From the NCBI GenBank assembly GCA_043814605.1, contig JBDRJV010000007.1, positions 3,354-67,353 of the forward strand: 64,000 nucleotides of DNA, read 5' to 3'. The position numbers and the translations under genes were made by a program. Below are positions 3,301-39,170 of this stretch, piece after piece. Each line of letters starts with the position of its first letter. Within the stretch, counting starts at the first letter, position 1. The notes below the pieces were generated by a model, which was given only the letters and a program-made list of their open reading frames with translations, ran no database searches and was not told the origin of the DNA. This DNA comes from Candidatus Omnitrophota bacterium (GTDB taxonomy: Bacteria; Omnitrophota; Gorgyraeia; B26-G9).

Positions 3301-3550
3301 CGGGATTGCTGGAAACGGGTTAACTAGTTTAAAAAATAAGCTGACAAATAAGTGGGAGGCTTAAAAACGAGGGCTTGGTTTTTTAAATTCCAGGCTCTTG
3401 TTTTTTTTAAAAATCAGTGTTATAGTTAGAAAATAGCGAAGAGAAAAAATGCTGCAAGTTGCAGGACTCAGGCTACAAAAGAACGAAAAAACAATAACTG
3501 AAAAAAGTGAACAGCGTTTAGCGATTAGAAAAATCAAAAAATTAAAAATT

Positions 3551-13244: not shown

Positions 13245-15425
13245 CTAAAATTCATCAACTTGTTTTTTAATGTTTAAAGCAATTTCTTTCCCCACGTTTG
13301 GAACCTCTTGTAGTTTCTCTACCGAGACTGTTTTAAGATTAGAAATAGTTTTGTATCCATTATTGAATAAATTACGCGCACGTATGCGTCCAATTCCTTT
13401 TAAATTGACTAATTCCAGCAGTTCTGATTTTACCCCGTACTTAAGTTGAGTCCTCAGGTTAATCAGGGGTTTAGTGCCGGGAATTTTAAACAGTTTAGCC
13501 AACTCAATAGTTGAATATAATAACCATTCGGCAGTATCCATAAAACGGTAGATATCACCAGGGCCTGTGCCAAAAAAATCACAGATTGATTCTTCTTTTT
13601 CTTCATTAATCCATTGGGAAATCATCCAGACTGTTTTGATACGGGCTAAATGCGAATTAAAATCTTCACTTAATGGCAAAGGCAGCTGGAATTCATCTTT
13701 ATGCGAATCAATATAGGGGATAATTTTTTCTAGATCAGATTTATTTACACTTAAGGTGAACATGTCCGGGACACAGCAGATCAGATAAAGTAAAGTTAAG
13801 GGGGTGAACATTCTTTCCGTTCCCTTAAAACAATCTCTGATTATAACCGCTGTGATCGGGTCAATATATAAACGGCTGATTCGGCTGCCAAATGCAGTAG
13901 GTAATAATTTATCTTTTTTTTGTTGGATCATTTCCTGACGCGTTAAAAACGCAATAATTTCTAATACTATTTCCGTCAAGTCATAATATTTTTGTTCGTA
14001 ATAAAAAAAAGTTTTGTGAATAAAGTCAAAGGCAGTATTTATGCTGGAAATAAAACCTGTAACAATTGAAGCGAGAAGATGTACCCGTAGTGCGCTTTCA
14101 TTGCCCAGATGAGAATGAATGGGTTCAGAATCCGCAAATATGAAATCGTTAAATAATTCACTTTGCTCCTGTTTATTACGAGCATAAAGAATTGATTCTC
14201 CAAATTTATCATATTTAGGCCGTCCGGCGCGTCCGCTCATTTGTTTATATTCCATAACACTTATAGGCTTCATGCCTAGGCCGGAGGCATAACGGTACAA
14301 ACCGCGGATTATTGTCCGGCGGGAGGGAAGATTAACGCCGACAGCGAGTGTGGGAGTGGCGCAAATAACCTTGATAATATTTTTTCTAAAATTTTCTTCA
14401 ATTAATTTACGATGATTATGATGTAATCCAGCATGATGAAAAGCCACACCGCATTTTGTATATTCACTTAATTGTTTAGAAACCTTCGTAACTTCTGCAG
14501 AGCTTTTGGTCAATTCCTGGGCTAAAGAAGCTAATTGGGTACGGTCCTTAGGTGTTAAAAAAGCGGATAAGTCTTTAGAAATACGCCGAGCCTCAGCCTG
14601 GGCTGACCTGCGGGTATTAACAAAAACTAAGGTCTGGCCTTTCTCATAAACACAATCAATAGCCAAAGCACTGATATCATCATTAACTCTTTTTAAGTGT
14701 TGTGCATCAAGTTCCTTTGATGTACCATCCGCAAATTTAATTTTGCCTTGACAATAAACCCCTTCTTTTAAAACTACCGGCCGCCAGCTGCTGATGACTA
14801 AATTTGCATTTAACCAATTGGCGATTTGGTCAGCATTAGCAATTGTCGCGCTTAAACCGACTATTTTTAAATTGTCATTTAAACTGATTAATCTGGTTAA
14901 AACTGTTTCTAAAGTAGGCCCGCGGTGAGGATCACCAATATAGTGTATTTCATCAGAGATAACACAAGCTAATTTTGATCCCAGCCAAGATGAATTTTGA
15001 CGCAGCAGGGAATCAACTTTTTCCGCAGTAGCGATTAAAATATCATTTTTTGCTAAGGATGGATTGGAATGGTCAAAATCACTGGTAGCAATACCAATTT
15101 TTATGCCGATTTTTTCGTAACGCTCTTTAAATTCATCATATTTTTCCGAAGCTAAAGCACGTAAGGGTACAATATAAAGACAGTTGCCTTTTTTTGTTAA
15201 AATAGTTTCTAACATGACTAATTCAGCCAGTAAGGTTTTTCCGGAAGCTGTGGGCATAGCTAAAATCATGTTTTTATCAGTAAGCAGCCCTTGTTCAATT
15301 GCTTTTGCTTGTGGGGGATAAAGATCTGTGATTCCGTTATTTGTCAAAATTTCTTGTAAATTTTTCGGTAGTGTTTTGAAAATTGCTTTTGTGTTCATAA
15401 CGTTAGCTAATTGTACCAGTTCCAA
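13245..15425 (-). CDS. Hel308/Ski2-like superfamily-2 DNA helicase
   Basis: Motif I MPTASGKT, motif II DEIH, motif VI (xRxGR) MSGRAGRP (translated). A winged-helix/ratchet region and a C-terminal helix-hairpin-helix (LKGIGRIRARNL) follow. Confidence 0.8.
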   Translation of the reverse strand: MELVQLANVMNTKAIFKTLPKNLQEILTNNGITDLYPPQAKAIEQGLLTDKNMILAMPTASGKTLLAELVMLETILTKKGNCLYIVPLRALASEKYDEFKERYEKIGIKIGIATSDFDHSNPSLAKNDILIATAEKVDSLLRQNSSWLGSKLACVISDEIHYIGDPHRGPTLETVLTRLISLNDNLKIVGLSATIANADQIANWLNANLVISSWRPVVLKEGVYCQGKIKFADGTSKELDAQHLKRVNDDISALAIDCVYEKGQTLVFVNTRRSAQAEARRISKDLSAFLTPKDRTQLASLAQELTKSSAEVTKVSKQLSEYTKCGVAFHHAGLHHNHRKLIEENFRKNIIKVICATPTLAVGVNLPSRRTIIRGLYRYASGLGMKPISVMEYKQMSGRAGRPKYDKFGESILYARNKQEQSELFNDFIFADSEPIHSHLGNESALRVHLLASIVTGFISSINTAFDFIHKTFFYYEQKYYDLTEIVLEIIAFLTRQEMIQQKKDKLLPTAFGSRISRLYIDPITAVIIRDCFKGTERMFTPLTLLYLICCVPDMFTLSVNKSDLEKIIPYIDSHKDEFQLPLPLSEDFNSHLARIKTVWMISQWINEEKEESICDFFGTGPGDIYRFMDTAEWLLYSTIELAKLFKIPGTKPLINLRTQLKYGVKSELLELVNLKGIGRIRARNLFNNGYKTISNLKTVSVEKLQEVPNVGKEIALNIKKQVDEF

Positions 15426-15488
15426 GAGTAGAAGAGGAAAGGGTTTTTTTAGGAAAATTTAAATTTAAATTTAAAATAGTAAATTTTA

Positions 15489-15968
15489 CTAATTTTTCTT
15501 TTTACTTTTTACTATTTTTTCCATTAACTCATCTATTTTATCAATAAAGTCGTTACGCTGTTGGTTTATCGGGTCAATCTTTTTTTTGATTTCTCCGATA
15601 TAAGATAATGGCCTGTCAGTTCGGCGTGCTTCATCTTCTAAATGCCATAATTCAATGTTTTTTCGGGATAATCCTTCTATGGCCTGAGAAAGTTTTTCAT
15701 TTTTACCGATTCTGTTGATATCTTTTAAAGGGTTATAAAGTTTTAATTTTTCTTCTCGTAAAGTAACTTTTTCTGCAAAAGCTAACACGATAAATTGCTC
15801 TATCTCTTTTGTTAGCAACAGCTTTTGTTTTTTTAATAATTTCATTTTTGATTTAAGTTCTTTTTGAGAAAATTTTGATTTTTTACTTTGAATGCTTTTT
15901 TTTAAATAAAATTCCCGGATAGATTTTATGGTTAGCTTATCAACCAAGCTGCCAAGGGTTTCAGACAT
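15489..15968 (-). CDS. Hypothetical coiled-coil protein
   Basis: 159-aa ORF, strongly charged and helical. I recognise no motif. Confidence 0.35.
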   Translation of the reverse strand: MSETLGSLVDKLTIKSIREFYLKKSIQSKKSKFSQKELKSKMKLLKKQKLLLTKEIEQFIVLAFAEKVTLREEKLKLYNPLKDINRIGKNEKLSQAIEGLSRKNIELWHLEDEARRTDRPLSYIGEIKKKIDPINQQRNDFIDKIDELMEKIVKSKKKN

Positions 15969-16154
15969 AAATGCCTCCAGCTTTAAGATTAAAATTTACT
16001 TTAAAATTATAACTTGTATTTAAAAAATACTCAAGGTTTTTCTAAATTTCAAGTTAATTTTTTTAGGAAATAAAAGCAAAAATAATACTTAATTAATTTA
16101 TTTAACAAAATTCCAATTGACTCCAAGGTTAGTTTGTAGTATTTTATAAATGAT

Positions 16155-17129
16155 ATGAAAAATCAAATGATAAAATACATAAGAAAACCGCGTTTAAAAG
16201 ATCCTTATCTGGTGGCAGCTTGGCCCGGCATGGGGAATGTGGCGATTAAAGCTGCGGAGTATTTATGGGAAGCGCTAAAGCCAGTGGAATTTGCCCAATT
16301 AACTGCGGAGGGTTTTTTCTACCCGCATGATGCCTGGATCGTTAATAGCCAGATTGAATTTCCCCGGTTACCTGCAGGAAAGTTTTATTATTGGAGGAAC
16401 CCTCAGGGAGGCAGTGATATTATAATTTTTCTTTGTGAGGCACAGCCTTCTTTGGAAAAAGGATATAATTATGCTCAATTAGTTCTAGAAGTAGCTAAAG
16501 ATTTTAAAGTAAAAAAAGTTTTTACTTTTGCTTCTATGCCGACCCCAATTGATCATACTCAAACGGCTAAAGTTTGGGCTTCTGCGACCGATAAGAAAAT
16601 GCTGAAAGAATTAGAAAAAATTGATGTCGAACTAATGCGGGTCGGACAAATCAGCGGTCTTAACGGATTATTAATGAGTGTTGCTAAAGAACAAAAAATG
16701 CACGGGATTTGTTTTTTAGCGGAAATCCCGATGTATGCTATTCAAATTGAAAATCCTAAAGCTGCGAAAGCTGTGCTCAATATTTTTGCCCAATTAGTTG
16801 GCTTAAAAATTGATTTTACGGGGTTGGATGAAAGAGCAAAAATGGTGGAAGATGAAATAGAAAAATTAGTTGATTATTTTAAAACCGGGGCAACCTTAGG
16901 CCCGATTAGTGAGGAAGAAATTGAGAAAGTAAAACAAACCTTGTCTTTTAGCTCTCGGCTGCCGGAATCAGCAAAAGCAAAGATTGAAGAATTGTTTAAA
17001 GTGGCTCAAATTGATTTATCCCGGGCAAATGAATTGAAAGATGAATTAGACCGCTGGCATATTTATAAGGATTATGAAGATCGTTTTTTAGATTTGTTTA
17101 AGCCGAATAAAAAAGATAACCATTGTTAA
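16155..17129 (+). CDS. PAC2-family protein (COG1938, archaeal-type ATP-grasp-like / proteasome-assembly-chaperone family)
   Basis: N-terminal AAWPGMGNVAIKAAEYL matches the PAC2 G-P-G-x-G-x-V signature. Confidence 0.5.
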   Translation: MKNQMIKYIRKPRLKDPYLVAAWPGMGNVAIKAAEYLWEALKPVEFAQLTAEGFFYPHDAWIVNSQIEFPRLPAGKFYYWRNPQGGSDIIIFLCEAQPSLEKGYNYAQLVLEVAKDFKVKKVFTFASMPTPIDHTQTAKVWASATDKKMLKELEKIDVELMRVGQISGLNGLLMSVAKEQKMHGICFLAEIPMYAIQIENPKAAKAVLNIFAQLVGLKIDFTGLDERAKMVEDEIEKLVDYFKTGATLGPISEEEIEKVKQTLSFSSRLPESAKAKIEELFKVAQIDLSRANELKDELDRWHIYKDYEDRFLDLFKPNKKDNHC

Positions 17130-23260: not shown

Positions 23261-23409
23261 AATAAAAGCTAAAAAAAGTTTTGATAATGTTGAGTTAAAA
23301 AACTGTAATTAGATTCAAAATTTTAATAAATACTATTTACTGCATAATATTGCCGCGACCATTATCTATCCGGATAATTTTTTTAATTCAAGAAAGATTA
23401 TGAAAAAAA

Positions 23410-23934
23410 ATGATTGAATTATACATTCTCCTTTTGATTATGATTATCGCTTCAATTGCGGCGCTGGAAGTTAACGATTTGCTTTCTTCTGTGGTTGTAA
23501 TTGGTGCGGTAGGGTTATGTTTAAGTGTCGGATTTTTGCTTTTAAAAGCTCCGGATTTAGCAATTACACAATTGATTGTAGAAATTGTGCTGGTAACAAT
23601 CCTGCTCAGAGCTACATTGACACAGGATCAACATTGTTTTAAAAATAAAAGAGATTTTTATAAACTATTCTTAGTTATTCTGTTAATTAGTTTATTCTTG
23701 TCGGCTGCGTACGTTGTGATTAATGACCTGCCTATTTTTGGCAAACCTTTAATGCGTGCAAGTGAAACTTATTTAATGCAGGAATTAAAAAATAAAAAAG
23801 TTACTAATTTGGTATGTTTAATCAATCTAAAGTACATGATTTTAGACACATTTGGGGCAATGGTTACGTTATTCAGCTGTGTAATCAGCGTTATTTTATT
23901 GAGCCGAAAAAATCCAGAGGAGGATGATTTTTGA
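23410..23934 (+). CDS. Mrp/Mbh-type membrane subunit (MrpB-like DUF4040; MbhD-like)
   Basis: LLKAPDLAITQLIVE matches the DUF4040 APDVALTEA motif. Three or four TM helices. Confidence 0.55.
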   Translation: MIELYILLLIMIIASIAALEVNDLLSSVVVIGAVGLCLSVGFLLLKAPDLAITQLIVEIVLVTILLRATLTQDQHCFKNKRDFYKLFLVILLISLFLSAAYVVINDLPIFGKPLMRASETYLMQELKNKKVTNLVCLINLKYMILDTFGAMVTLFSCVISVILLSRKNPEEDDF

Positions 23935-24419
23935 AAAAAGAAAATCTAAACACAAAGCAAAAAACAGCAGATATGAACACAGAGAAAGGCATGAGCATTA
24001 TTATTAAGACAATTACCCGAATAACTGTGGGAATACTTTTTCTTTATGGAGTGAATATGGTTTTACATGGGAATATTAATCCGGGGGCAGGATTTGCCGG
24101 AGGCGGGATTATTGCCTTGGCTTTTATTAATTTAATTTTAGCTTTTGGCAAGGATGCGGCATTAGAAAAACTGAACCACACCGGGGCGGGAATTATTGCG
24201 GGATTAGGTTTATTTATGTTTTTAGTTTTGAGCATTATTGGTTTCTACGAAGACAGCTTTATCAAATATTTTAAACAGGACAACACATTGATTACAGAAT
24301 TTATGGCGGGAAGCAGGGTTACATTATTTAATATTAGTATTTGTGTGGAAGTCGGAGTAGGAATTTTTGCAATTTTTTTTAGCTTAATTACTTTAAAAAT
24401 TATCGAGGGCAGGAAATGA
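23931..24419 (+). CDS. Na+/H+ antiporter subunit B homologue (MnhB/MrpB; MbhE-like)
   Basis: HGNINPGAGFAGGGI matches the MnhB HGxxTPGGGFQGG motif. TTG start with a GGAGGA RBS. Confidence 0.7.
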   Translation: MKKENLNTKQKTADMNTEKGMSIIIKTITRITVGILFLYGVNMVLHGNINPGAGFAGGGIIALAFINLILAFGKDAALEKLNHTGAGIIAGLGLFMFLVLSIIGFYEDSFIKYFKQDNTLITEFMAGSRVTLFNISICVEVGVGIFAIFFSLITLKIIEGRK

Positions 24420-24742
24420 TATACTTTTTATGTTTTGTTCTGTTTTGCGTAGGAATATACGGGTTGTTGATAAAGAAAAATATTATCAAATTAATCATAA
24501 GTTTAATTATTATTAATTATTCAATTCATATTTTTCTGATCCTGATCGGGTTTAGATGGCAGGGGGCAGCGCCGGTACTCGAAACCGGGGGCAAATTAAC
24601 GCTTATTGTGGATCCTTTGCCGCAAGCAATTGTTCTGGTTTTGCTAATTGTGAATATGTCGGCAATAGCATTATTAATTGCCGTAGCGATGAAGCTTTAC
24701 CAGAAATTTAAAACATTTAATATTAAAGAAATGAAAAATTAA
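24416..24742 (+). CDS. MrpC/NuoK-like small membrane subunit
   Basis: 108 aa, three TM helices, NuoK-like. Its position is after MrpB. Confidence 0.55.
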   Translation: MIYFLCFVLFCVGIYGLLIKKNIIKLIISLIIINYSIHIFLILIGFRWQGAAPVLETGGKLTLIVDPLPQAIVLVLLIVNMSAIALLIAVAMKLYQKFKTFNIKEMKN

Positions 24743-24747
24743 AACAA

Positions 24748-26265
24748 ATGCAATTATTACCTTTATTTATAATCATCCCTGTATTGGCCAGTTTAATCAC
24801 GGCAATTATTGCGCGTCAGAATAATAAAATTGCTGATTTTATTTGTTTTTTAGCCGGAATATCCTTATGGGGATTATCAGTATATTTGCTTATTGTTTTT
24901 AAAAATCAGGCGTTGCTTGTTTTTGCGCAAAGCAGATGGGGGTGGTCGGAAGGAGTTTTATTAGTCGCAGATGGGTTAAGCATAGTTTTATTAAGCATGG
25001 TTTATTTTTTATTTATGAGTATGTTCATATATAATTTTAGATTCCTAAAGGCAGCGGAACAAAGATGGGGATATCACGTAATAGTTTTATTATTGTTAAC
25101 CGGCATTAACGGAGTATTAATAGCGGCAGATATATTTACAATGTATGTTTTTCTGGAAGTCGCGGTTATTGCTTCTTATGCTTTGGTAATTTTTAGAAAT
25201 AAAACAAGAGCATTTTTGAGTTTTTTTAAATATATGGTTACGGGAATATTTGCTTCGGCTTTAATTTTAATGGCAATTGCGGTTTGTTATAGTTATGTGG
25301 CTACCTTAAACATGGCGGAAATCTCGCGTCAAATATCAATACGCGCTGTAAATAGTAATCTTTTATCTGAGAATCCCGTAGTTTGTTTCATGGGAATTTT
25401 ATTTGCTTTAGGTATTGGCTTAAAAACAGGGTTGATTCCTTTTTTAAGTTCGATTTCTAATATCCAGGTGCAAACGAAAACTCCGGCAACAAATATACTT
25501 TCCGTCCTTTTCCTGCCGGTGATTGGAATATACCTTTTTCTGCGGATATTTTTCAATGTACTTATGTTAGGAACAGAATTTTCTAATTTTATTATTTTTT
25601 GGGCAGTTATGTTAATATTCACAGGCATAATTCGGGCGATGTTTAAAAATAATTTTAAGGAAGTTTTAGCTTGCGTTTATATTACAGAAATTGGTATTTG
25701 CTTATTAGCTATCGGTATTGGCAACCTGCTGACAATTACGGCTGGGTTAATGCATCTTTTTCATTATATGATTAACCGGGCTGTTTTAAATTCTTATGCG
25801 GGTATTTTTGAATATACACAGGGAACTACAGATTTTATTCTGATAAAAGGTTTTAAAGTTAAAATGCCGGTAATCGCAATCACTTCGCTGATTGGGAGTT
25901 TTTCATTTGTGGGTATTCCTCCGTTTTCTGGCTTTTGGACAAAGGCTGCAATTGTGGCCGGAGCAGAGCAAGCGGGTTTTCAGTGGGCCCTGCCGTTTAT
26001 GGTAATTGTAAGTTTAGGGAGTTTTATTATTTTTTTTAAAGTCCAATCCCGCATATTTTTTAATTTTAATAAAAATAATGAAAAGCTGCCTTCCCGGCAA
26101 GGAATACCTTTGCTTATGAAAACTGCAATGGTTATCTTAGCTTTTGTATCTTTATTAATTAATGTTTTGTGGTTAATCCCAGAGGAAGAAATGTTTTTAA
26201 CTCCCATTGCGAAAACGATCAAAAACAGTAAGGATTATGCAAGCCGTATCATGGATATATTTTAA
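24748..26265 (+). CDS. MrpD/NuoL/M/N-family proton-translocating antiporter-like subunit (the only one in the cluster)
   Basis: 505 aa with about 14 TM helices and complex I antiporter-family topology. Confidence 0.75.
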   Translation: MQLLPLFIIIPVLASLITAIIARQNNKIADFICFLAGISLWGLSVYLLIVFKNQALLVFAQSRWGWSEGVLLVADGLSIVLLSMVYFLFMSMFIYNFRFLKAAEQRWGYHVIVLLLLTGINGVLIAADIFTMYVFLEVAVIASYALVIFRNKTRAFLSFFKYMVTGIFASALILMAIAVCYSYVATLNMAEISRQISIRAVNSNLLSENPVVCFMGILFALGIGLKTGLIPFLSSISNIQVQTKTPATNILSVLFLPVIGIYLFLRIFFNVLMLGTEFSNFIIFWAVMLIFTGIIRAMFKNNFKEVLACVYITEIGICLLAIGIGNLLTITAGLMHLFHYMINRAVLNSYAGIFEYTQGTTDFILIKGFKVKMPVIAITSLIGSFSFVGIPPFSGFWTKAAIVAGAEQAGFQWALPFMVIVSLGSFIIFFKVQSRIFFNFNKNNEKLPSRQGIPLLMKTAMVILAFVSLLINVLWLIPEEEMFLTPIAKTIKNSKDYASRIMDIF

Positions 26266-26759
26266 TGAAAAGAAAAACAGTTTTGTTTATAATTTGTGTT
26301 CTAATTTGGTGCGGATTAAATTGGCCAATCAATCGGAAATGGTTAATTATCGGCTTGGGAGTGAGCACGATTATTGCTTTAGGCTCAGGTGATATTTTTA
26401 TCCGGCGCCCCCATATTTTAATTCATTTTAAAAGATATTTTTGGCTGATTTACTATTTAGCTTTTCTTTCAACTCAAATAATAAAAGCTAATATTTATAT
26501 TATTTATTGTCTTTGCCAGCCGGCTTTATCACTGCATCCGGGGATTGTAAAAGTTAAAACAAGAATAAGAAGTGAAATGGGTCTGACTGTTTTGGCTAAT
26601 TCGATAACTTTTTCCACAGGAACTTGCGTTGTTGATATCGATAACGCTAATGGATATATATATGTACATTGGATGGATGTTAAAAGTCAAAGTATAAAAC
26701 CGGCAACTGAACTGATTGTTGAGAAATTCGAAAAAATATTAAGAGAGGTGTTTGATTAA
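26265..26759 (+). CDS. MrpE-like subunit
   Basis: 164 aa with an N-terminal TM pair. Size and position are typical of MnhE. Confidence 0.5.
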   Translation: MKRKTVLFIICVLIWCGLNWPINRKWLIIGLGVSTIIALGSGDIFIRRPHILIHFKRYFWLIYYLAFLSTQIIKANIYIIYCLCQPALSLHPGIVKVKTRIRSEMGLTVLANSITFSTGTCVVDIDNANGYIYVHWMDVKSQSIKPATELIVEKFEKILREVFD

Positions 26760-27117
26760 TAAAATGGTTGAAGATAAAATAGGGCAAAGAATTTATTGGT
26801 TAATGGGAATAATATTTTTAAGCTTAATGCTGATTGCTACGTTTTTATTATTTCCCTATTTTTTAGAACGGGCTTTATTTTTTCTTTTGATTTGTTGTTT
26901 ATTTGTTCTGATGCGAATGCTTATCGGGCCGGGAGCATGCCAAAGAATAGTTGCGGTAACAATCATTAGCATGCTGATTATCGGATTTTGCGGCATTCTC
27001 GCGTTCTTTACCCAAAAGAACTGGTATATTGATATTGCTTTAGTTTGGGTTTTTCAGTCTTTTATTGCCACACTTACTTTTGCAAAATTTCTCGAAGGAA
27101 AAAGATTTGATGATTAA
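26752..27117 (+). CDS. MrpF-like subunit
   Basis: Small three-TM protein in the MnhF position. Start is TTG 26752 or ATG 26764. Confidence 0.4.
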   Translation: MINKMVEDKIGQRIYWLMGIIFLSLMLIATFLLFPYFLERALFFLLICCLFVLMRMLIGPGACQRIVAVTIISMLIIGFCGILAFFTQKNWYIDIALVWVFQSFIATLTFAKFLEGKRFDD

Positions 27118-27145
27118 ATGATTATTGTAAAGCAGGAAGGAAGTT

Positions 27146-27493
27146 ATGATTGAATTAGGAAAAATATTTTTAATTTTAGGGTTGATATTTGATTTGATCG
27201 GAACAATTAGTTTAATGCGCATGCCGGATATTTATAGCCAATTACAAAGCGCGGCAAAAAGTGTAACCTTAGGGACTTGCTTGATTCTCTTTGGTGTGTT
27301 TTTAAGCCGGGGGATGAGTAGCGCTGGGTTCAAAACACTTTTGGTCCTGGGGTTTTTAATCCTGATCAGTCCTGTTTCTGTACATGCTTTAGCACGGGGA
27401 ATTCATAAAAGCCGAAACATAAACCTTAAAAACTATGTATGTGATCAATACCATGATGATCAATTAAGGAAAAAAGATAACATTTCTAATTAG
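27146..27493 (+). CDS. MrpG-like subunit (MnhG/PhaG)
   Basis: LMRMPDIYSQLQSAAKSVTLG matches the MnhG LRxPDxYTRLHAAxK core. Confidence 0.65.
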   Translation: MIELGKIFLILGLIFDLIGTISLMRMPDIYSQLQSAAKSVTLGTCLILFGVFLSRGMSSAGFKTLLVLGFLILISPVSVHALARGIHKSRNINLKNYVCDQYHDDQLRKKDNISN

Positions 27494-27554: not shown

Positions 27555-27660
27555 TCCGCGGCCTAAAACCGCTCCCATTTATGGCGCGGATAAAAGGAGG
27601 CCGCTTGAGTATTCCAGGCCAGGAACACGGGCTTTAGCCCGTGAGGGGGTCCATTAGGCA
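27555..27660 (+). ncRNA. GC-rich structured intergenic element, a candidate small RNA or cis-regulatory RNA
   Basis: GC content is locally far above the flanks. Perfect hairpin cacgggc-ttta-gcccgtg. Imperfect stem atccgcggcc...ggcgcggat. No ORF. Confidence 0.3.
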
Positions 27661-27708
27661 AAATTATATATTTTGCCCAGTTGCTTTTTTGATTAAAACT
27701 GGTAAAAT

Positions 27709-27777: not shown

Positions 27778-28020
27778 ATGCACGAAATGGGGATAGCGCA
27801 GGAAGTTTTTAAATCTGTTTTACTGGAACTGAAGGACTATGAATATAAAAAAATTAATAAAATTGTCCTGGAAGTTGGTGAATATAATTTAATTGAGCCA
27901 GAGTCTCTTCAAAATGCGTTTAGGCTGATTGCAGAAAACTCCCGGGCAAATAATGCTATCCTTGAAATAAAACAAATCCCGGGAATGGAAATAAAAATAA
28001 TACACATTGATGCAGAGTAA
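27778..28020 (+). CDS. hypA: HypA-like nickel metallochaperone lacking the zinc-finger domain
   Basis: N-terminal MHE nickel-binding motif. The N-domain and the final beta-strand (IKIIHIDAE, compare E. coli LQIRRIEIDQE) are present. There are no cysteines, so the CxxC...CxxC Zn site is precisely absent. Confidence 0.6.
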   Translation: MHEMGIAQEVFKSVLLELKDYEYKKINKIVLEVGEYNLIEPESLQNAFRLIAENSRANNAILEIKQIPGMEIKIIHIDAE

Positions 28021-29212
28021 AATTGAGCAAATTCAAATACCATTAAATAATATTTACCAAAAATCTTGGATAAAAAATAAAACGGTTTTGGCTTTAGGTC
28101 CGGAACTTAAGTCAAATTATGCTGTTATTATAAATTCTCAGGCTATTGTTTACACCGGGTTTGGAGATTTAAAAAACCCGGATAATTTTACGAGATACAA
28201 AAAACATATTTTAAAAACAATCAAAAATTTATCAAAAAAACCGCAAGTTATAGCCTGTGATTTTAATCCGATATTTTTAAGCTCCCAATTTGCCCGTAAG
28301 TTACAAGCTTCAACTTTAGGTAAAAGCAAATTAAATCCTGTATTGCATCATTATGCGCATATTGCGGCCAGCTGTGCGGTTTTAAATCTAATGCAGACAC
28401 AAGTTTTAGGTATTGTTTGTGATGGTACGGGATTGGGCGATGATGATCAGACTTGGGGCTGTGAGTTTATCAAAAAATCGGCAGGCAATTTTACACGCTG
28501 CGGACACTTAAATTATATTCCTTTGCCTGGTGCGGATTATGCGGTTATTGAGCCTTGGCGCGTCGGGCTTTCCTTGCTTTATCAAACTTTTGGTGATAAA
28601 ATATTTACTCTGGATTTAGCTTTGCTTAAACATCACCAGGATAAAACAAATATATTAGTTAAAATGATCAAACAGGGTTTTAATACGCCGATGGCTTCCA
28701 GTGCAGGTAGATTATTTGATGGAGTTGCGGCAATTTTGGGTTTTTTTAAAAAAATAAAATTTGAAGCTCAGGCAGCTGTACTTTTAGAGCAGCAGGCACA
28801 AAAAGTTATAAATTATGAAAAAGGCAAGTATGCTTATAAGATACAAAAAGCAGGTTTAAAGTTTATTCTGAACACAAATGAGTTAATTGAGGATATTGTG
28901 GCAGACTTAAGGGCTAATCAACCTAAAGAAATTATAGCCGCGCGTTTTCATAATACATTTAGCGATATGATAATAAAAATGGCGGGAAAAATTACGCAAC
29001 AAAAAGAAAATAGTAAGATTAAGGATATTGTTTTATCCGGAGGAGTTTTTTTTAATAGGATAATTTCCGATAAAGTAATCAGGGGCTTAGAAAAGTATGG
29101 ATTTAAAGTACATAAACCAGAGAACTTAATTTTATCTGATGCGGGTTTATCATTAGGGCAGGCGGTGATAGGGTATGTGTTTAGGAATTCCGGTAAAGGT
29201 AAAAAAAATTAA
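28007..29212 (+). CDS. hypF: HypF C-terminal (Kae1/TsaD-like carbamoyltransferase) domain only; the acylphosphatase, Zn-finger and YrdC domains are absent
   Basis: HHYAHIAAS, GIVCDGTGLGDDDQTWGCEF, PLPGADYAVIEPWR, SSAGRLFDGVAAILG and LSGGVFFN match the HypF C-terminal domain. Only about 25 aa precede it. Confidence 0.75.
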   Translation: MMQSKIEQIQIPLNNIYQKSWIKNKTVLALGPELKSNYAVIINSQAIVYTGFGDLKNPDNFTRYKKHILKTIKNLSKKPQVIACDFNPIFLSSQFARKLQASTLGKSKLNPVLHHYAHIAASCAVLNLMQTQVLGIVCDGTGLGDDDQTWGCEFIKKSAGNFTRCGHLNYIPLPGADYAVIEPWRVGLSLLYQTFGDKIFTLDLALLKHHQDKTNILVKMIKQGFNTPMASSAGRLFDGVAAILGFFKKIKFEAQAAVLLEQQAQKVINYEKGKYAYKIQKAGLKFILNTNELIEDIVADLRANQPKEIIAARFHNTFSDMIIKMAGKITQQKENSKIKDIVLSGGVFFNRIISDKVIRGLEKYGFKVHKPENLILSDAGLSLGQAVIGYVFRNSGKGKKN

Positions 29213-29408
29213 AGGGAATACGGCTACAGTCAGTACCGGATCTGTAGAAAAACAGATTGGTATTGAACTGACTCCGGATGTAAAAGTAGGTGATTATGTG
29301 CTTTTACATGCTGGGTTTGCGATAGAAATTATAAATGAAAAAGTTGCTCAAGAGACCTTGAAATTATTAGAAGAAATGTTTTCAATGGAAATAGATGATC
29401 AAAAATAA
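29175..29408 (+). CDS. hypC: HypC/HupF hydrogenase maturation factor
   Basis: N-terminal MCLGIP (essential Cys2), about 77 aa, OB-fold. Confidence 0.8.
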   Translation: MCLGIPVKVKKIKGNTATVSTGSVEKQIGIELTPDVKVGDYVLLHAGFAIEIINEKVAQETLKLLEEMFSMEIDDQK

Positions 29409-29428
29409 TATGGTTAAGGCAAAGGCAA

Positions 29429-30520
29429 TTGAAGCTTATGGATAAAACTAGAAATAATAAATTAGCCAGTCAGCTCCGGCAAACGATTACCCGTTTTTGT
29501 AAAAAAATAGAAAAAAATATATCAATCATGGAAGTCTGCGGTACGCATACAGTGGCTTTGTTTCGTTCCGGGATTAGAGAAATGCTGCCTTCTAATATGA
29601 GAATCATCTCCGGGCCCGGATGTCCGGTTTGCGTAACCGATCAAGCTGATGTTGACCGCGCCATCGGTCTTTGTCAATTAGAGAATACTATTGTTACCAC
29701 TTTTGGTGATATGATGCAGGTTCCGGGGACTGAAGTTAGTTTAGAACAGATGAAAGCACAGGGCCGAGATGTACGGGTTGTATATTCTGCGTTGGATGCT
29801 TTAGAAATTGCTAAAACTAATAATGAAAATGTTATTCATATTGCGGTTGGATTTGAAACTACAGCTCCGACAATTGCAGCAGTTTTAAAAAGAGCTAAAC
29901 AAGAAAAGGTAAATAATTTTTATGTATTGAGTGCGAATAAAATTGTACCGCCGGCTTTGGAGTGTTTGGTTGCTTGCGCAAAAAGCAGGATTAATGCGTT
30001 TATTTTACCCGGACATGTTAGTGCCATTATTGGAGCAAAACCATACCAATTTCTTGCGGATAAGTATAATAAACCCTGTGTGATTGCCGGATTTGAGCCT
30101 GTAGATATTTTGCAGGCAATCGCAATGTTGTGTAAACAAATAGTCGAACAAAAATCGAGGATTGAGATACAATATACACGTTGTGTGCAAAGGGAGGGAA
30201 ACATTTTAGCTCAGAAAATATTAAGAGAAGTTTTTGAGGTTCGGGATGCACAATGGCGCGGCTTGGGGGTAATGAAGAAAAGTGGATTTTTTTTAAATAA
30301 AAATTATGCAGGATTTGAGGCGCGAGAAAATTTTAAGGTAAAAATTCCTAAGCCAAAAAAAACGCCTTGCCGCTGCGGTGATGTTTTGCAGGGGGTAATT
30401 TTGCCGCCGGAATGCAAACTGTTTCAGAATAAATGTACGCCAGAGAATCCGATTGGACCGTGTATGGTTTCAACAGAAGGAACTTGCGCAGCATATTATC
30501 GTTACGCCAGAGTTTCTTAA
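29429..30520 (+). CDS. hypD: HypD hydrogenase maturation factor (Fe-S)
   Basis: CGTHT, GPGCPVCVT, FETTAP and the C-terminal CPVC-type cysteines. ATG 29438 is an alternative start. Confidence 0.9.
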   Translation: MKLMDKTRNNKLASQLRQTITRFCKKIEKNISIMEVCGTHTVALFRSGIREMLPSNMRIISGPGCPVCVTDQADVDRAIGLCQLENTIVTTFGDMMQVPGTEVSLEQMKAQGRDVRVVYSALDALEIAKTNNENVIHIAVGFETTAPTIAAVLKRAKQEKVNNFYVLSANKIVPPALECLVACAKSRINAFILPGHVSAIIGAKPYQFLADKYNKPCVIAGFEPVDILQAIAMLCKQIVEQKSRIEIQYTRCVQREGNILAQKILREVFEVRDAQWRGLGVMKKSGFFLNKNYAGFEARENFKVKIPKPKKTPCRCGDVLQGVILPPECKLFQNKCTPENPIGPCMVSTEGTCAAYYRYARVS

Positions 30521-30540
30521 CTTATTATCAGAGGAAAAAA

Positions 30541-31569
30541 TTGAATGACCAATTAAAAAATAAAAACGTTACATTAGCTTACGGTAATGGCGGACAATTA
30601 ATGCAGCAGCTGATCAATAATTTGATCAAGGCTAATTTTGGCAATCCGATATTAAATAAACTGGATGATGCTGCTGTTTTAAACGGGGTTGGCTTTAGGG
30701 AACATCTTGTATTTACTACAGATTCTTTTGTGGTGAGTCCGATATTTTTTCCGGGTGGCGATATCGGTAAGCTGGCGGTTTGCGGTACAATAAATGACCT
30801 TTGCATGATGGGTGCAAAACCATTATATTTAAGTCTGAGTATGATTATTGAGGAGGGATTTGCTTTTAAAGATCTAGAAAGAATTGTTAGCTCCATTAAG
30901 AAAACAATTAAAATAGCTGGGGTTAAAATAGTTTGCGGTGATACTAAGGTTGTAAATAAAGGTAATTGTGATAAAATATTCATTAATACATCTGGAATCG
31001 GCAGTATTGATAATCGCACAAATATTAGTGCATCTAAGGCTAAACCTGATGACCTAATTATCGTGAGCGGGCCAATTGGTGAACATGGAATTGCAATTAT
31101 TAGTCAACGAAAGGGGCTCGGGTTTAAAACAAAATTGAAAAGTGATTGTGCGCCTTTAAATGATCTTGTCCTAAATTTAATGAAATATAAAAATAAAATT
31201 CATGTTTTCAGAGATCCGACACGCGGGGGGCTTGCGAGTGTATTAAATGAAATTGCGCAACTTTCCAATGTTGGCATAGAAGTTGATGAAGTAAAGATTC
31301 CCGTGAGTAATGCAGTAAAGGGCGCGAGTGCAATTTTGGGATTGGATCCTTTGTACCTGCCGTGTGAAGGAAGATTAGTCGCTGTGGTTAGCCCGGATAA
31401 AATGCCGCAAATTTTAAACTTAATGCAAAAAAATAAAAAAGGCAGGGGAGCAAGAGTTATTGGCCGAATAAAAGCCGGGCACAAAAAAGAGGTATATTTA
31501 AATACTGTAATTGGCGGCAGGCGGATTCTTGATTTACCGATCCGGGAACAAACACCGCGAATTTGTTAA
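30541..31569 (+). CDS. hypE: HypE (carbamoyl dehydratase, PurM-like)
   Basis: PurM-like fold motifs and the invariant C-terminal PRIC. TTG start 7 nt after an AGAGGA RBS, with no overlap with hypD. Confidence 0.85.
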   Translation: MNDQLKNKNVTLAYGNGGQLMQQLINNLIKANFGNPILNKLDDAAVLNGVGFREHLVFTTDSFVVSPIFFPGGDIGKLAVCGTINDLCMMGAKPLYLSLSMIIEEGFAFKDLERIVSSIKKTIKIAGVKIVCGDTKVVNKGNCDKIFINTSGIGSIDNRTNISASKAKPDDLIIVSGPIGEHGIAIISQRKGLGFKTKLKSDCAPLNDLVLNLMKYKNKIHVFRDPTRGGLASVLNEIAQLSNVGIEVDEVKIPVSNAVKGASAILGLDPLYLPCEGRLVAVVSPDKMPQILNLMQKNKKGRGARVIGRIKAGHKKEVYLNTVIGGRRILDLPIREQTPRIC

Positions 31570-36888: not shown

Positions 36889-38190
36889 ATGGGCGAAACT
36901 TTTACAGGTGGAAAACATTTAGAAAATTATAAATATTTGAGTAAAGATGCCCGGATTACAGTGATGCCAATACCTGATCAAGTAATCATTCCTTTATCTC
37001 AACATACAGGATCAATAACTCAACCTGTTGTAAAAAAAGGGGATAGGCTAAAAGTAGGCACTGTTATTGGTACAACAGATAAGTTTATTTCCGCAATTGT
37101 GCATTCGAGTGTTTCCGGGACAGTAAGTAATATTGTTGATTATAATCATCCTGTTTTAGGGCAATCTCCCTCTGTAATTATTGATTCTGATGGAAAAGAT
37201 GAGCGGGAAAATACAATAATTCCGAGAAAAGTAGTGGATTCTTTAGATAAAGATAAATTACTAGAAATTATTAAACAAGCAGGTATTGTAGGTTTAGGCG
37301 GAGCAGCTTTTCCCACGCATGTGAAATTGAATCCGCCTAATCCAGTAGATACATTAGTGATTAATGGGGCTGAATGCGAGCCGTATTTAACCTGTGATTA
37401 TCGTTTAATGATTGAACATACTAATGATATTTTAAAAGGAATTTTACTGCTAAAAAAAATACTTTCTGTTTCTTTAGTGCTGATTGGTATTGAAGAAGAT
37501 AAATCAGAAGCAATGAGTATGATGCGGAATAAAATTGTTGAAAGGGGTTTAGCGGCATTAAAAGTTATCCCGCTTCAGGCAAAGTATCCGCAGGGAGCAG
37601 AAAAACAATTGATTAAGGCTACTTTAGACCGGGAAGTTCCCTCAGGCAAGCTTCCTTTTGATGTCGGCGTGGTTGTGTGTAATGTGGGAACAGCCTATGC
37701 AGTATACGAAGCCGTATATTTAAGTAAGCCACTTTATGAAAGAGTTATTACTGTAACCGGAAATCCGATTAAGAATCCCTCCAATCTAAGAGTAAGAATC
37801 GGGACTAGATTTTCTGAGATAATTTCTTATTGCGGTTTAAAGACTCAGGCCATAGGAAAAATAATTATGGGAGGGCCGATGATGGGCTTGGCCCAATTTA
37901 CAGACGATGTTCCAGTAATTAAAGGGACTTCGGGGATTCTTTTGCTAAGCTCAAAAGACAGTACAATGAGTGAACCAGGGCCATGTATTCGTTGTGGCCG
38001 CTGCGCTACTTTATGTCCTGTAGGGATGTTACCTTATGCGTTAAGCTTATGTGTCGAAGCAAAAAAAATAGATCAAACGCAAATTTATAATGCGCAAGAT
38101 TGCATGGAGTGCGGAATTTGCACTTATGTTTGCCCGGCAAAAAGAAAAATTTTAGAAAGTATCCGGTTGGTAAAGGCGGTTATGAAATGA
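36889..38190 (+). CDS. rnfC: Rnf/Nqr-type complex subunit C
   Basis: GIVGLGGAAFPT (NADH/FMN site), NGAECEPYLTCD, and two 4Fe-4S motifs CIRCGRCATLCP and CMECGICTYVCP. Confidence 0.85.
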   Translation: MGETFTGGKHLENYKYLSKDARITVMPIPDQVIIPLSQHTGSITQPVVKKGDRLKVGTVIGTTDKFISAIVHSSVSGTVSNIVDYNHPVLGQSPSVIIDSDGKDERENTIIPRKVVDSLDKDKLLEIIKQAGIVGLGGAAFPTHVKLNPPNPVDTLVINGAECEPYLTCDYRLMIEHTNDILKGILLLKKILSVSLVLIGIEEDKSEAMSMMRNKIVERGLAALKVIPLQAKYPQGAEKQLIKATLDREVPSGKLPFDVGVVVCNVGTAYAVYEAVYLSKPLYERVITVTGNPIKNPSNLRVRIGTRFSEIISYCGLKTQAIGKIIMGGPMMGLAQFTDDVPVIKGTSGILLLSSKDSTMSEPGPCIRCGRCATLCPVGMLPYALSLCVEAKKIDQTQIYNAQDCMECGICTYVCPAKRKILESIRLVKAVMK

Positions 38191-39170
38191 CATTAAATTT
38201 TAAAAATAATATTATTTTGAGCAGTTCCCCTCACTTACGGAGTCCGGAAACAACATCTAAAATTATGTGGACTGTATTCTTTTGTTTGATTCCTTCAGGG
38301 CTTGTCAGTATCTATGTTTTTGGTATTTCAACCTTGTGGATTATGCTCAGCGCAGTACTGGGGGCAATGCTCAGTGAATGGATATGTTCACAAATACAAA
38401 AAAAACCCGCTACACTTAGTAACGGAAGTGCGGTTTTAACGGGATTATTATTAGCTTATAATCTGCCGCCGGGCTCTCCTTTGTGGATGGCTTTTTTAGG
38501 ATCATGTGTTGCCATAATTTTGGGAAAAGTTGTTTTTGGCGGTTTAGGTTTCAATATTTTTAATCCTGCTTTAATCGGCCGCGTATTTTTAATGGCGAGC
38601 TTTCCGGTATTAATGACACGCTGGCCAGCACCTTTTCAGTTAGACGCTGTAACTGCTCCTACGCCATTAGCTATACTTAAAGATAGTTTTAGTCAAGCCC
38701 CCATTCTAGATAAAGCAGAAATTATTCATTACTCAATACGAGATTTAATCCTCGGGTTTAGGGGCGGATGCATAGGAGAAGCATGTATTTTAGCTTTAGT
38801 GATTGGCGCAGCTTTTTTAATGCTTAAAGGATATATTTCCTGGCATATCCCAGGTAGTTTTATCGGCACGGTTGCTGTTTTTACCTGGATTTTTGCGGGA
38901 GAAAGTTTATTTACCGGTAATTTTTTACTGCATATTCTCTCCGGCGGACTTGTTCTCGGAGCTTTCTATATGGCCACGGATTATGTTACCGGGCCCATAA
39001 CTGTTTATGGAAAAGTACTTTTTGGTATTGGTTGTGGAATTATTACCTGTGTAATCCGGCTGTGGGGAGGATATCCGGAAGGAGTATCTTATTCAATTTT
39101 ATTAATGAATATTCTAACTCCTTTGATGGATAAATTTATCCGGCCGCGAAGATTGGGAGAGAAAAAGTGA
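38187..39170 (+). CDS. rnfD: Rnf/Nqr-type complex subunit D (covalent-FMN membrane subunit)
   Basis: SSPHLRS near the N-terminus. SGGLVLGAFYMATDYVTGP contains the FMN-attachment Thr. Start ATG overlaps the rnfC stop as ATGA. Confidence 0.85.
   Translation: MTLNFKNNIILSSSPHLRSPETTSKIMWTVFFCLIPSGLVSIYVFGISTLWIMLSAVLGAMLSEWICSQIQKKPATLSNGSAVLTGLLLAYNLPPGSPLWMAFLGSCVAIILGKVVFGGLGFNIFNPALIGRVFLMASFPVLMTRWPAPFQLDAVTAPTPLAILKDSFSQAPILDKAEIIHYSIRDLILGFRGGCIGEACILALVIGAAFLMLKGYISWHIPGSFIGTVAVFTWIFAGESLFTGNFLLHILSGGLVLGAFYMATDYVTGPITVYGKVLFGIGCGIITCVIRLWGGYPEGVSYSILLMNILTPLMDKFIRPRRLGEKK

Follow-up and report, generated by a model that had tools for sequence, protein, structure and literature searches.

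The window analysed here, a 64 kb stretch of DNA from an Omnitrophota bacterium, carries a tightly packed cluster of seven genes (23410-27493, plus strand) which encodes an Mrp-type membrane module with a single antiporter-like subunit and no MrpA. The module is conserved within one family-level clade, and this clade has replaced most of the residues through which protons and sodium are moved in complexes of this type. The best explanation, in which we place about even confidence, is that the module is an MrpA-less group 3 Mrp, a remnant of a hydrogenase supercluster with replaced residues that may act as an accessory cation/proton exchanger. Group 3 Mrp systems are defined by the absence of mrpA and are exemplified by Pf1147-53, with the gene order mrpEFGBB'CD (PMC8415708). 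The composition is therefore not a new architecture; what is new is its recurrence across Omnitrophota together with its ancestry, the rewired residues, and selection that is accompanied by repeated loss.

Composition of the module

All seven open reading frames of the original prediction were verified on the plus strand, the spacing between neighbours ranging from -8 bp (an overlap) to +28 bp, and each of them passes the Pfam gathering score. [quoted passage not shown] Its sequence corresponds to the TM17-21 domain of MrpA (residues ~605-790) and, in the solved structures, aligns to MrpA residues 654-803 of 6z16_A and 633-795 of 7qru_A. The MbhD+E-type protein of the Pyrococcus furiosus Mrp is named MrpB (B) and its MbhF-type protein B' (PMC8415708). 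The next gene (23931..24419, TTG start) encodes the 162 aa MrpB/MbhF-like subunit (PF04039 MnhB, 6e-18), which retains the HG-x-x-PGxGF motif and has MbhF (6cfw_F, 4.9e-12) as its best solved relative, and is followed by the gene for a 108 aa MrpC/MbhG/NuoK-like subunit (24416..24742; PF00420, 9e-20) that is closest to MbsG (6e-21). Downstream of the 505 aa MrpD/MbhH-type antiporter-like subunit (24748..26265; PF00361, 3e-31) lies the gene for a 164 aa MrpE/MbsA-like subunit (26265..26759; PF01899 MNHE, 1.5e-32), which matches MbsA (6u8y_A) at 7.6e-28 and retains His135 (equivalent to H131e), while its LTPGT motif reads FSTGT. The last two genes encode a 121 aa MrpF/MbhB-like subunit with a TTG start (26752..27117; PF04066 MrpF, 4e-12) and a 115 aa MrpG/MbsC-like subunit (27146..27493; PF03334 MrpG, 5e-20), the latter exceeding the TIGR01300 cut-off and matching MbsC (6u8y_C) at 8e-19.

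The claim of a single antiporter-like subunit was borne out by tblastn of the window with the Omnitrophota second subunit and MrpD as queries, which matched 24748-26265 only. Pfam scans of about 60 of the 68 non-nested window ORFs of at least 100 aa revealed no second Proton_antipo_M protein, and no MrpA N-domain is found anywhere in the 64 kb. Against PDB sequences the 505 aa protein scores highest with MrpD (7qru_D, 127 bits), followed by MbhH (116), MbsH (115) and MrpA (at most 60). Its AlphaFold2 model (pLDDT 77.7, pTM 0.83) finds its best fold matches in the MrpD subunits of group 1/2 complexes (6z16_D, TM-score 0.87; 7qru_D, 0.86), and the MrpD fold is thus predicted to be retained despite the divergence of the sequence. 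In the phylogeny the protein falls outside ordinary group-1 MrpD, in a long-branched clade of its own (98% bootstrap) within the MrpD/MbhH/MbsH group. The sister placement of this clade with canonical Omnitrophota MrpD has a bootstrap of 15%, and the argument on ancestry therefore relies on the small subunits together with synteny.

As originally noted, the module lies beside hydrogenase maturation genes. The Pfam-assigned hypA (80 aa), the C-terminal half of hypF (401 aa), hypC, hypD and hypE occupy 27778..31569 on the plus strand, and their motifs (MHE, MCLGIP, GPGCPVC, GFETT, CX14CX6C and PRIC) are intact. The reported lack of hydrogenase catalytic genes likewise withstood a search of the 64 kb, in which no catalytic gene was recovered by tblastn (queries: NiFe large subunit, NuoB-, NuoC-, NuoH-, NuoI-like, PhoU-like and HycI) or by the Pfam scans. 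Catalytic, NuoH-like and MbhI-like genes are absent from the 23 kb upstream and 36 kb downstream of the module and from the flanks of 12 relatives (at most ±10 kb, and shorter where the contigs are short). The region upstream of the glycosyltransferase (GT) genes, where an mrpA gene or an mbh catalytic cluster would have contradicted the original prediction, holds neither; the genes there are for an Opp ABC transporter, PAC2, DUF4254 and a helicase. The description of the module as stand-alone accordingly holds for the sequenced neighbourhoods, and does not extend to whole genomes.

Ancestry within the Omnitrophota

Mrp-linked group 4g hydrogenases have been reported in the Omnitrophota, in Gorgyraea and Saelkia (PMC8542988), and it is in loci of this kind that all seven window proteins have their closest relatives in sequence, encoded in the same order, MbhDE-B-C-D-E-F-G. 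One such locus (L002, JBGGGU010000003) begins with NuoI/H/B/C/LSU-like genes, continues with PhoU, an antiporter-like subunit of 548 aa and the genes MbhDE, MnhB, C, D, E, F and G, and then has Fer4. In another (L001) an Mrp part of the same type leads into Fer4, HycI and hypAFCDE, with the 80 aa HypA and truncated HypF that are also seen in the window. The small subunits of the window are 42-54% identical to those of L001 and L002. Unlike the window, the group 4g loci contain a second antiporter-like subunit, PhoU-like, Fer4 and HycI genes and often catalytic genes, and their MrpD proteins keep the canonical triad and evolve slowly (64% identity between L001 and L002), in which the MrpD of the window differs. 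This comparison indicates that the module was derived from the Mrp half of a supercluster of Mrp-linked group-4g [NiFe]-hydrogenase and hyp genes that is common among Omnitrophota. In its descent the second antiporter-like subunit (MrpA-N/MbsH'-like) and the PhoU-like gene were lost upstream, as were the ferredoxin-like (Fer4) and HycI genes downstream.

Conservation, selection and repeated loss

The module and its synteny recur in at least 12 other Omnitrophota assemblies with the shared order PAC2-Opp-GT9-GT2, the seven genes, hyp, HcyBio and, further along, RnfCDB. The ORFs are all full-length in the syntenic loci (L004, L006, L007, L009, L010, L013, L016, L017, L020, L021 and L024). Hyp genes follow the module in all seven loci which extend that far, the contigs of the remaining four ending earlier, and the same adjacency is seen in the distant relative L001. 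Among 16 syntenic genomes the module is present in 11, two have hyp only (L014 and L022) and three have neither, whereas the module without hyp never occurs. No Mrp fragments are left in those genomes that are without the module, and the distribution supports the view that close relatives lost it independently on at least three occasions.

At dS values of 0.6-0.8 the dN/dS of MrpD is 0.16-0.22, the highest or jointly highest of the locus, and across all seven module genes it ranges from 0.07 to 0.22, compared with 0.03-0.13 for the flanking genes (with the exception of oppF, 0.18 in one pair). These ratios indicate that the seven genes are under purifying selection. They nevertheless evolve fast, at about twice the rate of their neighbours. 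Between the window and L004 MrpD is only 36% identical, as against 59-80% for the flanking genes, and the MrpD proteins of the clade lie at distances of 1.9-2.1 from outgroups, as opposed to 1.2-1.5 in canonical relatives. At 66 positions which are at least 85% conserved in homologues, the MrpD proteins of the clade retain 37-46 residues, compared with a mean of 60.8 in homologues.

Ion-path residues

The roles of the Mrp ion-path residues are taken from two publications, in which the Lys-His-Lys triad of MrpD serves in proton transfer, the MrpF Asp in Na+ entry, and MrpA Glu796/780 and MrpC Thr75 in Na+ exit; the residues lost here are those on which both published mechanisms depend (PMC7419157, PMC9568556). 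The TM8 Lys of MrpD, present in 231 of 254 homologues, is Pro in 12 of 12 clade members (Pro257 in the window), and the TM11 Lys is likewise gone in all 12, Tyr340 and Arg344 standing in place of His and Lys in the window protein. In the MrpA-C protein Ala150 replaces E796/E780 (A or C in 11/11), MrpC Thr75 is Val75 (V, I or M in 11/11) and MrpF Asp35 (Anoxybacillus)/Asp38 (Bacillus) is Thr70 (T, M or N in 10/10), with MrpF Asp29 also changed, to Gln64, in the window lineage. Because the triad and the Na+-path residues are replaced, canonical Na+/H+ antiport by the module appears doubtful; the joint loss of LysTM8, the TM11 His/Lys, Glu780 of SLS2 and MrpF Asp38 would be expected to abolish it. 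With the triad and three Na+-path residues gone, the original description of the module as ion-translocating becomes uncertain. Other residues persist: MrpD E137, K226 and K399 are retained in the window, as are Glu58 (E706/E687) and Asp146 (D792) of the MrpA-C protein, and the central Glu/Lys coupling site is kept across the clade. The TM10 Gln of MrpD has become Glu in 12 of 12 members (Glu314 in the window).

It is proposed that the seven-gene, MrpA-less complex to which the Mrp half of the supercluster was reduced by the loss of its second antiporter-like subunit and associated genes could function as a stand-alone accessory cation/proton exchanger. Such an exchanger would be built around the retained coupling site, comprising the MrpD Glu/Lys pair, MrpA-C Glu706/687 and the TM12 Lys of MrpD, and with the gain of the invariant TM10 Glu its path may be shortened or re-routed from K226 to E314 to K399. 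It would not be the canonical electrogenic 2H+/Na+ extruder. Since canonical antiport is expected to be abolished, it is purifying selection alone that suggests the module is still a transporter. Its use could be tied to hydrogen metabolism because the module is only ever found with hyp.

Relation to known complexes and competing explanations

The resemblance to the membrane arm of Mbh, Mbs and FHL complexes, on which the original prediction was based, holds for MBH, whose arm (MbhA-H, PDB 6CFW) matches the window subunits one-to-one with MbhH as sole antiporter-like subunit. It does not extend to MBS, which has two antiporter-like subunits, nor to FHL, whose E. coli structure is not known to include the small Mrp subunits. 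In MBS, MbsH' occupies the position of MrpA TM1-16 (PMC8415708), and every Mrp subunit other than MrpA-N is common to Mrp and MBH (PMC7419157). Group 1/2 Mrp complexes (Bacillus, Anoxybacillus, Dietzia; PDB 7QRU, 6Z16, 7D3U) share subunits B-G and the MrpA C-domain with the window, but their MrpA is complete, including the N-terminal antiporter-like domain and a lateral helix, and all of the ion-path residues are conserved. The stand-alone Mrp of P. furiosus, for which a deletion phenotype has been published (Haja & Adams 2021, PMC8415708), also consists of seven genes with one MrpD and no mrpA, carries the MrpA TM17-21 domain as its own protein beside a separate MrpB, and forms an operon without an energy-input module. 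It differs in its archaeal host, in its gene order (E-F-G-B-B'-C-D as opposed to B-B'-C-D-E-F-G), in lacking the constant downstream hyp genes and in reportedly retaining the proposed H+/Na+ pathway residues, of which LysTM8, the TM11 His/Lys, the MrpF Asp, MrpA Glu796/780 and MrpC Thr75 are replaced in the window clade.

The constant adjacency to hyp, and the fact that none of the 16 syntenic genomes has the module but not hyp, would be just as compatible with a physical part in a hydrogenase complex. The module would then serve an MBH-like group-4 [NiFe] hydrogenase as its membrane arm, with MbhJKLMN and MbhI equivalents encoded elsewhere in the genome and a redox module docking, in the manner of MBH, on the TM12 face that MrpD leaves free. 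The subunits are precisely those of MbhA-H, although MbhD and MbhE are fused; the ancestral locus is hydrogenase-linked (PMC8542988), the hyp genes directly 3' are intact, and the small subunits score at least as well against MBH/MBS chains as against Bacillus Mrp (100 bits for MbsA versus 57 for MrpE, 78 for MbsG versus 56 for MrpC). We consider this reading unlikely, given that MbhI, MbhM and MbhJKLN genes are missing from the neighbourhood and that the ancestral second antiporter-like subunit, situated between the catalytic and the other Mrp genes, is gone together with the PhoU-like, Fer4 and HycI genes; by analogy with MBS, this lost subunit would separate the redox module from MrpD. Furthermore, MbhH of MBH keeps all of the key residues that the clade has lost (PMC7419157), and the presence of hyp without the module in L014 and L022 implies that the module is dispensable for the hydrogenase that hyp serves.

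The residue losses could also mean that ions are no longer moved, the module having a structural or other membrane role or being weakly selected on its way to loss. Several residues that have been described as strictly conserved or essential were lost together, MrpD has shed many highly conserved positions and no gene of the locus exceeds it in dN/dS, and the losses of the module among close relatives are clean. This explanation is nonetheless improbable, as the dN/dS values amount to real constraint on all seven genes, whose ORFs remain full-length in 12 lineages while MrpD has diverged to ~30% identity. In addition, little or no variation is seen within the clade at E137, K226, K399, the MrpA-C Glu and the newly acquired Pro257 and Glu314, which points to selection on buried charged residues and not on the fold alone. 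An ordinary Mrp with its mrpA encoded elsewhere or missed through misassembly is very improbable. The window covers 64 kb of a 264 kb contig, and in relatives the N- and C-domains of MrpA are already encoded by two different genes, but the second antiporter-like subunit of these relatives sits immediately upstream, and the clade-wide residue losses do not suit an ordinary Mrp. Twelve independent assemblies, produced in different studies, share the same boundaries (GT2, a gap of 100-380 bp and the MbhD-like gene), which rules out an assembly artefact.

Intergenic regions

The corresponding gap 5' of the first module gene in the window is 149 bp long and contains a weak sigma-70-like promoter match (TTGCCG-17-GATAAT, 23350..23378, plus strand; 9/12 in a consensus scan only), which is no more than suggestive because shuffled sequence yields more matches of this kind than the region does. 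The 284-bp gap between mrpG and hypA contains no ORF of at least 60 aa and, by consensus scan only, a terminator-like hairpin on the plus strand (27657..27677).

Gene content of the Mrp module

The window has a G+C content of about 35% and is part of a 264 kb contig. Seven ORFs are arranged head to tail on its plus strand at 23410-27493, all of them scoring above the Pfam gathering scores that served as the cut-off. The first ORF (23410-23934) encodes an MbhD domain (PF13244, E 1e-14) and is followed by MnhB (23931-24419, E 6e-18), Oxidored_q2 (24416-24742, E 9e-20), Proton_antipo_M (PF00361; 24748-26265, E 3e-31), MNHE (26265-26759, E 1.5e-32), MrpF_PhaF (26752-27117, E 4e-12) and PhaG_MnhG_YufB (27146-27493, E 5e-20), and with five of these matches the small subunits B, C, E, F and G are all present. 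NCBIfam and PDB alignments place the first protein over MrpA residues ~605-800, the C-terminal domain comprising TM17-21, which equals MbhD plus MbhE. Promoter and terminator scans gave weak consensus matches only.

The PF00361 protein is the only one of its kind in the 64 kb window; tblastn for a second antiporter-like subunit across this stretch matches the mrpD gene alone, and such a subunit is likewise absent in twelve relatives. Pfam searches of non-nested ORFs from 100 aa upwards (about 60 of 68) revealed no hydrogenase catalytic gene and no second antiporter-like protein in the window, and tblastn with queries from relatives found no NiFe large subunit, no NuoB-, NuoC-, NuoH- or NuoI-like, no PhoU-like and no HycI gene there. 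The catalytic large and small subunits, the NuoH-like anchor (MbhM) and MbhI are missing both from the window and from up to 10 kb on either side in the 12 relatives, and there is no space for a hidden small gene within the cluster or just 3' of it. A search of a protein database with an Omnitrophota NiFe large subunit gave no match below 80% identity among its best 120. GCA_016213925 and JACQZH are not mentioned in the supplements of Seymour et al. (2023), which contain per-genome hydrogenase tables.

Downstream of the module lie hypA (80 aa), hypF with its Kae1-like half only, hypC, hypD and hypE. Pfam and tblastn thus bear out, for the 64 kb window, the original prediction of a seven-gene module without MrpA that has a single antiporter-like subunit and is adjacent to hyp genes but not to catalytic genes. 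An mrpA gene or an mbh catalytic cluster upstream, beyond the glycosyltransferase genes GT2 and GT9, was to count against that proposal; neither was found, and OppBCDF, PAC2, DUF4254 and a Hel308-type helicase are encoded there instead.

Descent from hydrogenase-linked Mrp loci

In an exhaustive HMMER search covering 1.84 billion representatives, no homologue of the window MrpD exceeded 36% identity, and ordinary Omnitrophota relatives are 30-36% identical to it. An Mrp-linked group 4g hydrogenase is known from Omnitrophota (PMC8542988; PMC10066038). In L002, an example of the canonical relatives' loci with a second antiporter-like subunit, NuoI-, NuoH-, NuoB- and NuoC-like genes, the NiFe large subunit, a PhoU-like gene and the 548-aa second antiporter-like subunit make up the 5' part, and MbhD/E, MnhB, MrpC, MrpD, MrpE, MrpF, MrpG and a Fer4 protein the 3' part. 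Another such locus, L001, is from a closed 1.14 Mb genome and has the same arrangement from PhoU to Fer4, which then continues with HycI and hypA(80 aa)-hypF(C-half)-hypC-hypD-hypE. The small subunits of the window share 42-54% identity with their counterparts in L001 and L002, and HypD and HypE 51-53%; the window cluster therefore represents the Mrp-hyp part of this supercluster. Compared with the latter, the second antiporter-like subunit and the PhoU-like gene are missing from its 5' end, and Fer4 and HycI from its 3' end. The module has thus descended from a hydrogenase-linked supercluster.

Canonical hydrogenase-Mrp loci of Omnitrophota (L002 6436-8696, also L001 6427-8672) have a PhoU-domain gene that follows the NiFe large subunit and precedes the second antiporter-like subunit. 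The latter begins at a position matching MbhH residue 80, so that TM1-3 are apparently absent, and it aligns to MbsH' through its C-terminal extension.

A conserved clade with repeated loss

Six database proteins share the peculiarities of the window, and all of them occur in identical synteny (L004, L006, L007, L009 and L010), in the order PAC2-OppBCDF-GT9-GT2-[seven genes]-hypA-hypF...-HcyBio-CheC-RnfC-RnfD-RnfB-like. These loci were drawn from independent NCBI, JGI and Logan assemblies, and because the arrangement recurs between them an assembly artefact was rejected. A scan of 185,579 species genomes that was anchored on the upstream GT2 gene yielded 13 species representatives with matching flanks and 72-76% identical GT2 proteins. 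Eight of the 13 carry the seven genes, with every ORF full length, and neither catalytic genes nor a second antiporter-like subunit occur in the flanks of these eight, which span up to 10 kb per side. The module is conserved across at least 12 lineages. In one representative (L020, 14942-16012) a 356-aa IS-like ORF, probably a transposase, is inserted between mrpF and mrpG, and the flanking genes are intact.

The remaining five representatives have lost the module, of which no Mrp fragments are left. In L014 and L022 GT2 is followed directly by hypAFCDE, and in L018, L019 and L023 directly by HcyBio, with neither module nor hyp genes. A tree of the flanking proteins nests L014 in the L004/L013/L016/L017 group (98%) beside L016 (90%), joins L019 and L023 (100%) and places L022 outside a 96% group, which implies at least three independent losses. 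The module never occurs without hyp genes in this sample.

A link between the module and the RnfC-D-B genes was considered and rejected, since these genes persist in L014, L018, L019 and L023, the four module-less relatives whose loci reach that far. There, RnfC follows HcyBio in the absence of Mrp-like genes. The Rnf cluster of the window (36889-39961) consists of rnfC, rnfD and an rnfB-like gene only, an order also found in L004, and no RnfG, RnfE or RnfA gene is present anywhere in the window.

Fast evolution under purifying selection

Between the window and L004 the flanking proteins are 59-80% identical, the Hyp proteins 50-71%, the small Mrp subunits 44-57% and MrpD only 36%; the MrpD proteins of the canonical loci L001 and L002 share 64% identity. 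Distances from four outgroups amount to 1.9-2.1 substitutions per site to the clade, compared with 1.2-1.5 to the canonical relatives. In three close pairs within the clade (dS 0.5-0.8), MrpD has a dN/dS of 0.16-0.22; the remaining six subunits range over 0.07-0.21 and the flanking genes over 0.03-0.13, the one outlier being oppF, which reaches 0.18 in a single pair. Purifying selection therefore acts on all seven genes, with an about two-fold relaxation for MrpD, and evolution of the module is accelerated. Pseudogene status is ruled out by the dN/dS values together with the integrity of the ORFs.

Identity of the antiporter-like subunit

Among solved structures the MrpD-like protein matches Bacillus pseudofirmus MrpD best (127 bits), followed by MbhH (116 bits), MbsH (115 bits), two other MrpD chains (104-107 bits), NuoN (78 bits) and the MrpA chains (47-60 bits). 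The AlphaFold2 model (pLDDT 77.7, pTM 0.83) displays the full antiporter-like architecture including the beta-hairpin and discontinuous TM7 and TM12. It superimposes best onto MrpD (6z16_D, TM 0.87, rmsd 2.9 Å; 7qru_D, 0.86), followed by MbhH and MbsH (TM 0.81); the value for the MrpA chain 6z16_A is 0.78. Sequence and fold both resemble the MrpD type of subunit more than the MrpA/NuoL type. An NJ tree with MrpA/MbsH' sequences as the root puts it inside the MrpD/MbhH/MbsH group, where it and its syntenic relatives make up a monophyletic clade on a long branch (bootstrap 98%) apart from Bacillus group-1 MrpD, so the affiliation with ordinary group-1 MrpD that was to speak against the original prediction is not seen. 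The placement of this clade beside the canonical Omnitrophota MrpD group has a bootstrap value of only 15%.

Replaced and retained residues

The roles of individual residues are those described by Steiner and Sazanov (2020; PMC7419157) and Lee et al. (2022; PMC9568556). GluTM5 (E137), LysTM7 (K226), LysTM12 (K399) and the beta-hairpin-linked Asp75 and Asp128 are kept in MrpD throughout the clade, and the MrpA-C-like protein keeps Glu58 (E706 in Af, E687 in Bp numbering) and Asp146 (D792). The H+/Na+ coupling point is thus preserved under both published mechanisms.

Other positions have been replaced across the clade. The central LysTM8 (K250) of MrpD, a lysine in 231 of 254 homologues, is proline in 12 of 12 members; the TM11 lysine (K337) is lost in all 12, the TM11 His/Asp (333) in 10 of 12 and the gating Phe341 of TM11 in five of the six members in one alignment, and the TM10 glutamine (Q307) has become glutamate in all 12. 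Beyond MrpD, Glu796 of MrpA (Af; Glu780 in Bp, sodium-loading site 2) is replaced by Ala or Cys (11/11), Thr75 of MrpC by Val, Ile or Met (11/11), Asp35 (Af)/Asp38 (Bp) of MrpF by Thr, Met or Asn (10/10) and Pro114 of MrpE by Thr or Lys (7/12). The window itself has Ala, Val and Thr at the MrpA, MrpC and MrpF sites. Under both published mechanisms the route that protons take through MrpD is thus altered, as is the Na+ route at either end. Of 66 positions with 85% conservation or more among 248 other homologues, MrpD of the clade retains 37-46, against a homologue mean of 60.8, with losses clustering in TM7b-TM8 and TM10-TM11. In the AlphaFold2 model Pro257 is in the middle of helix 246-271 and Glu314 in the middle of helix 303-324.

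The window lineage (26752-27493) has further changed MrpF Asp29 of the conserved DR motif to Gln64 and the conserved MrpG Arg40 to Gln, and its WLPDAH motif in MrpD TM7b is the most degenerate within the clade. P0148, which has proline at TM8 and otherwise canonical residues, was considered as a possible intermediate; it is unrelated, and its neighbour on a contig of 2.8 kb is a NuoJ-like gene.

Relation to known Mrp and MBH-type complexes

[quoted passage not shown] The same seven proteins are encoded in the window, in a different gene order, and the architecture is therefore already known. For P. furiosus Mrp, a deletion phenotype related to pH, coupling to Na+ and conservation of the pathway residues are reported (PMC8415708); the window and its clade differ in lacking LysTM8, the TM11 His/Lys, E796/780a, T75c and D35/38f of group 3 Mrp, and agree in E137, LysTM7, LysTM12 and E706/687a. 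New here are the rewiring of residues throughout the clade, its fast evolution and a patchy distribution that is bound to hyp.

MBH/MBS-type group 4 complexes encode catalytic subunits, MbhM and MbhI with their Mrp-like genes, and these are absent from the neighbourhood of the module. Small Mrp subunits are not known from the structure of E. coli FHL. The original prediction, which likened the module to the membrane arm of MBH, MBS and FHL complexes, was right about an MBH-like arm without MrpA; its comparison with FHL was imprecise because FHL is not known to have small Mrp subunits, and that with MBS because MBS has two antiporter-like subunits. [quoted passage not shown] In MBS it is MbsH' that takes the position of MrpA TM1-16 (PMC8415708).

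Possible function

The preferred reading is that the complex still works and would be a small, accessory exchanger of cations and protons that is built on the coupling site it has kept, with Glu314 possibly standing in for the lost lysine; it would not be a canonical electrogenic Na+ extruder. The main rival explanation, which keeps some probability, is that the module provides a membrane arm to a hydrogenase whose genes lie at another place in the genome. Against it, the subunit expected between the redox module and MrpD, by analogy with MbsH' of MBS (PMC8415708), has been lost, as have key MbhH-type residues, and L014 and L022 retain hyp genes without the module. A second rival, a purely structural or decaying remnant, is opposed by the constraint on the buried charged residues.

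A more far-reaching possibility, less likely than not, is a repurposed Mrp with a single antiporter subunit that works without the TM8 lysine or the Lys-His-Lys triad, and whose relocated carboxylate (Glu314, TM10) and altered cation path would confer another ion specificity, or a proton-only or hydrogenase-associated function. If true, the repurposed Mrp is a natural test of which residues the complex I/Mrp antiporter fold needs.

The movement of protons and sodium by Mrp, MBH and the membrane arm of complex I is still disputed. The clade offers at least 12 naturally diverged MrpA-less complexes that have replaced canonical residues and kept the Glu/Lys coupling site under purifying selection. 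If they transport ions, they reveal dispensable parts of the machine; if not, they record a respiratory module decaying or being repurposed in reduced genomes. Within one phylum the loci form an evolutionary series from hydrogenase with a two-subunit Mrp, via the MrpA-less module with hyp genes and hyp genes only, to nothing. For annotation, the labels "Na+/H+ antiporter subunit A-G" on these genes are no evidence of canonical Na+ extrusion.

Neighbouring genes

At 27778-29212 the 80-aa HypA has the MHE N-terminus and lacks the zinc module, and HypF is the Kae1-like C-terminal half alone (401 aa); neither hypB nor a maturation protease is encoded in the window. The same truncated hypA and hypF are found in L001, L004, L009 and L010, and hence represent a trait of the phylum and not local damage. 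The longest hypE ORF (378 aa) overlaps hypD by 88 bp (30433-30560) and has an N-terminal extension of ~40 aa that is absent in relatives (328-338 aa); the true start is probably near 30559.

Further upstream (13245-17129), an archaeal-type Hel308 helicase (PF21280, domain 4), a DUF4254 protein and a PAC2-family protein are encoded in this bacterial MAG. All three occur at the same position in L004 and L010, and PAC2 across the wider clade too. An 823-aa ORF without a Pfam match (395-2866) precedes an exosortase (EpsH)/DUF3485 pair and a sugar transferase (3449-5015), which together may constitute a PEP-CTERM-type export locus.
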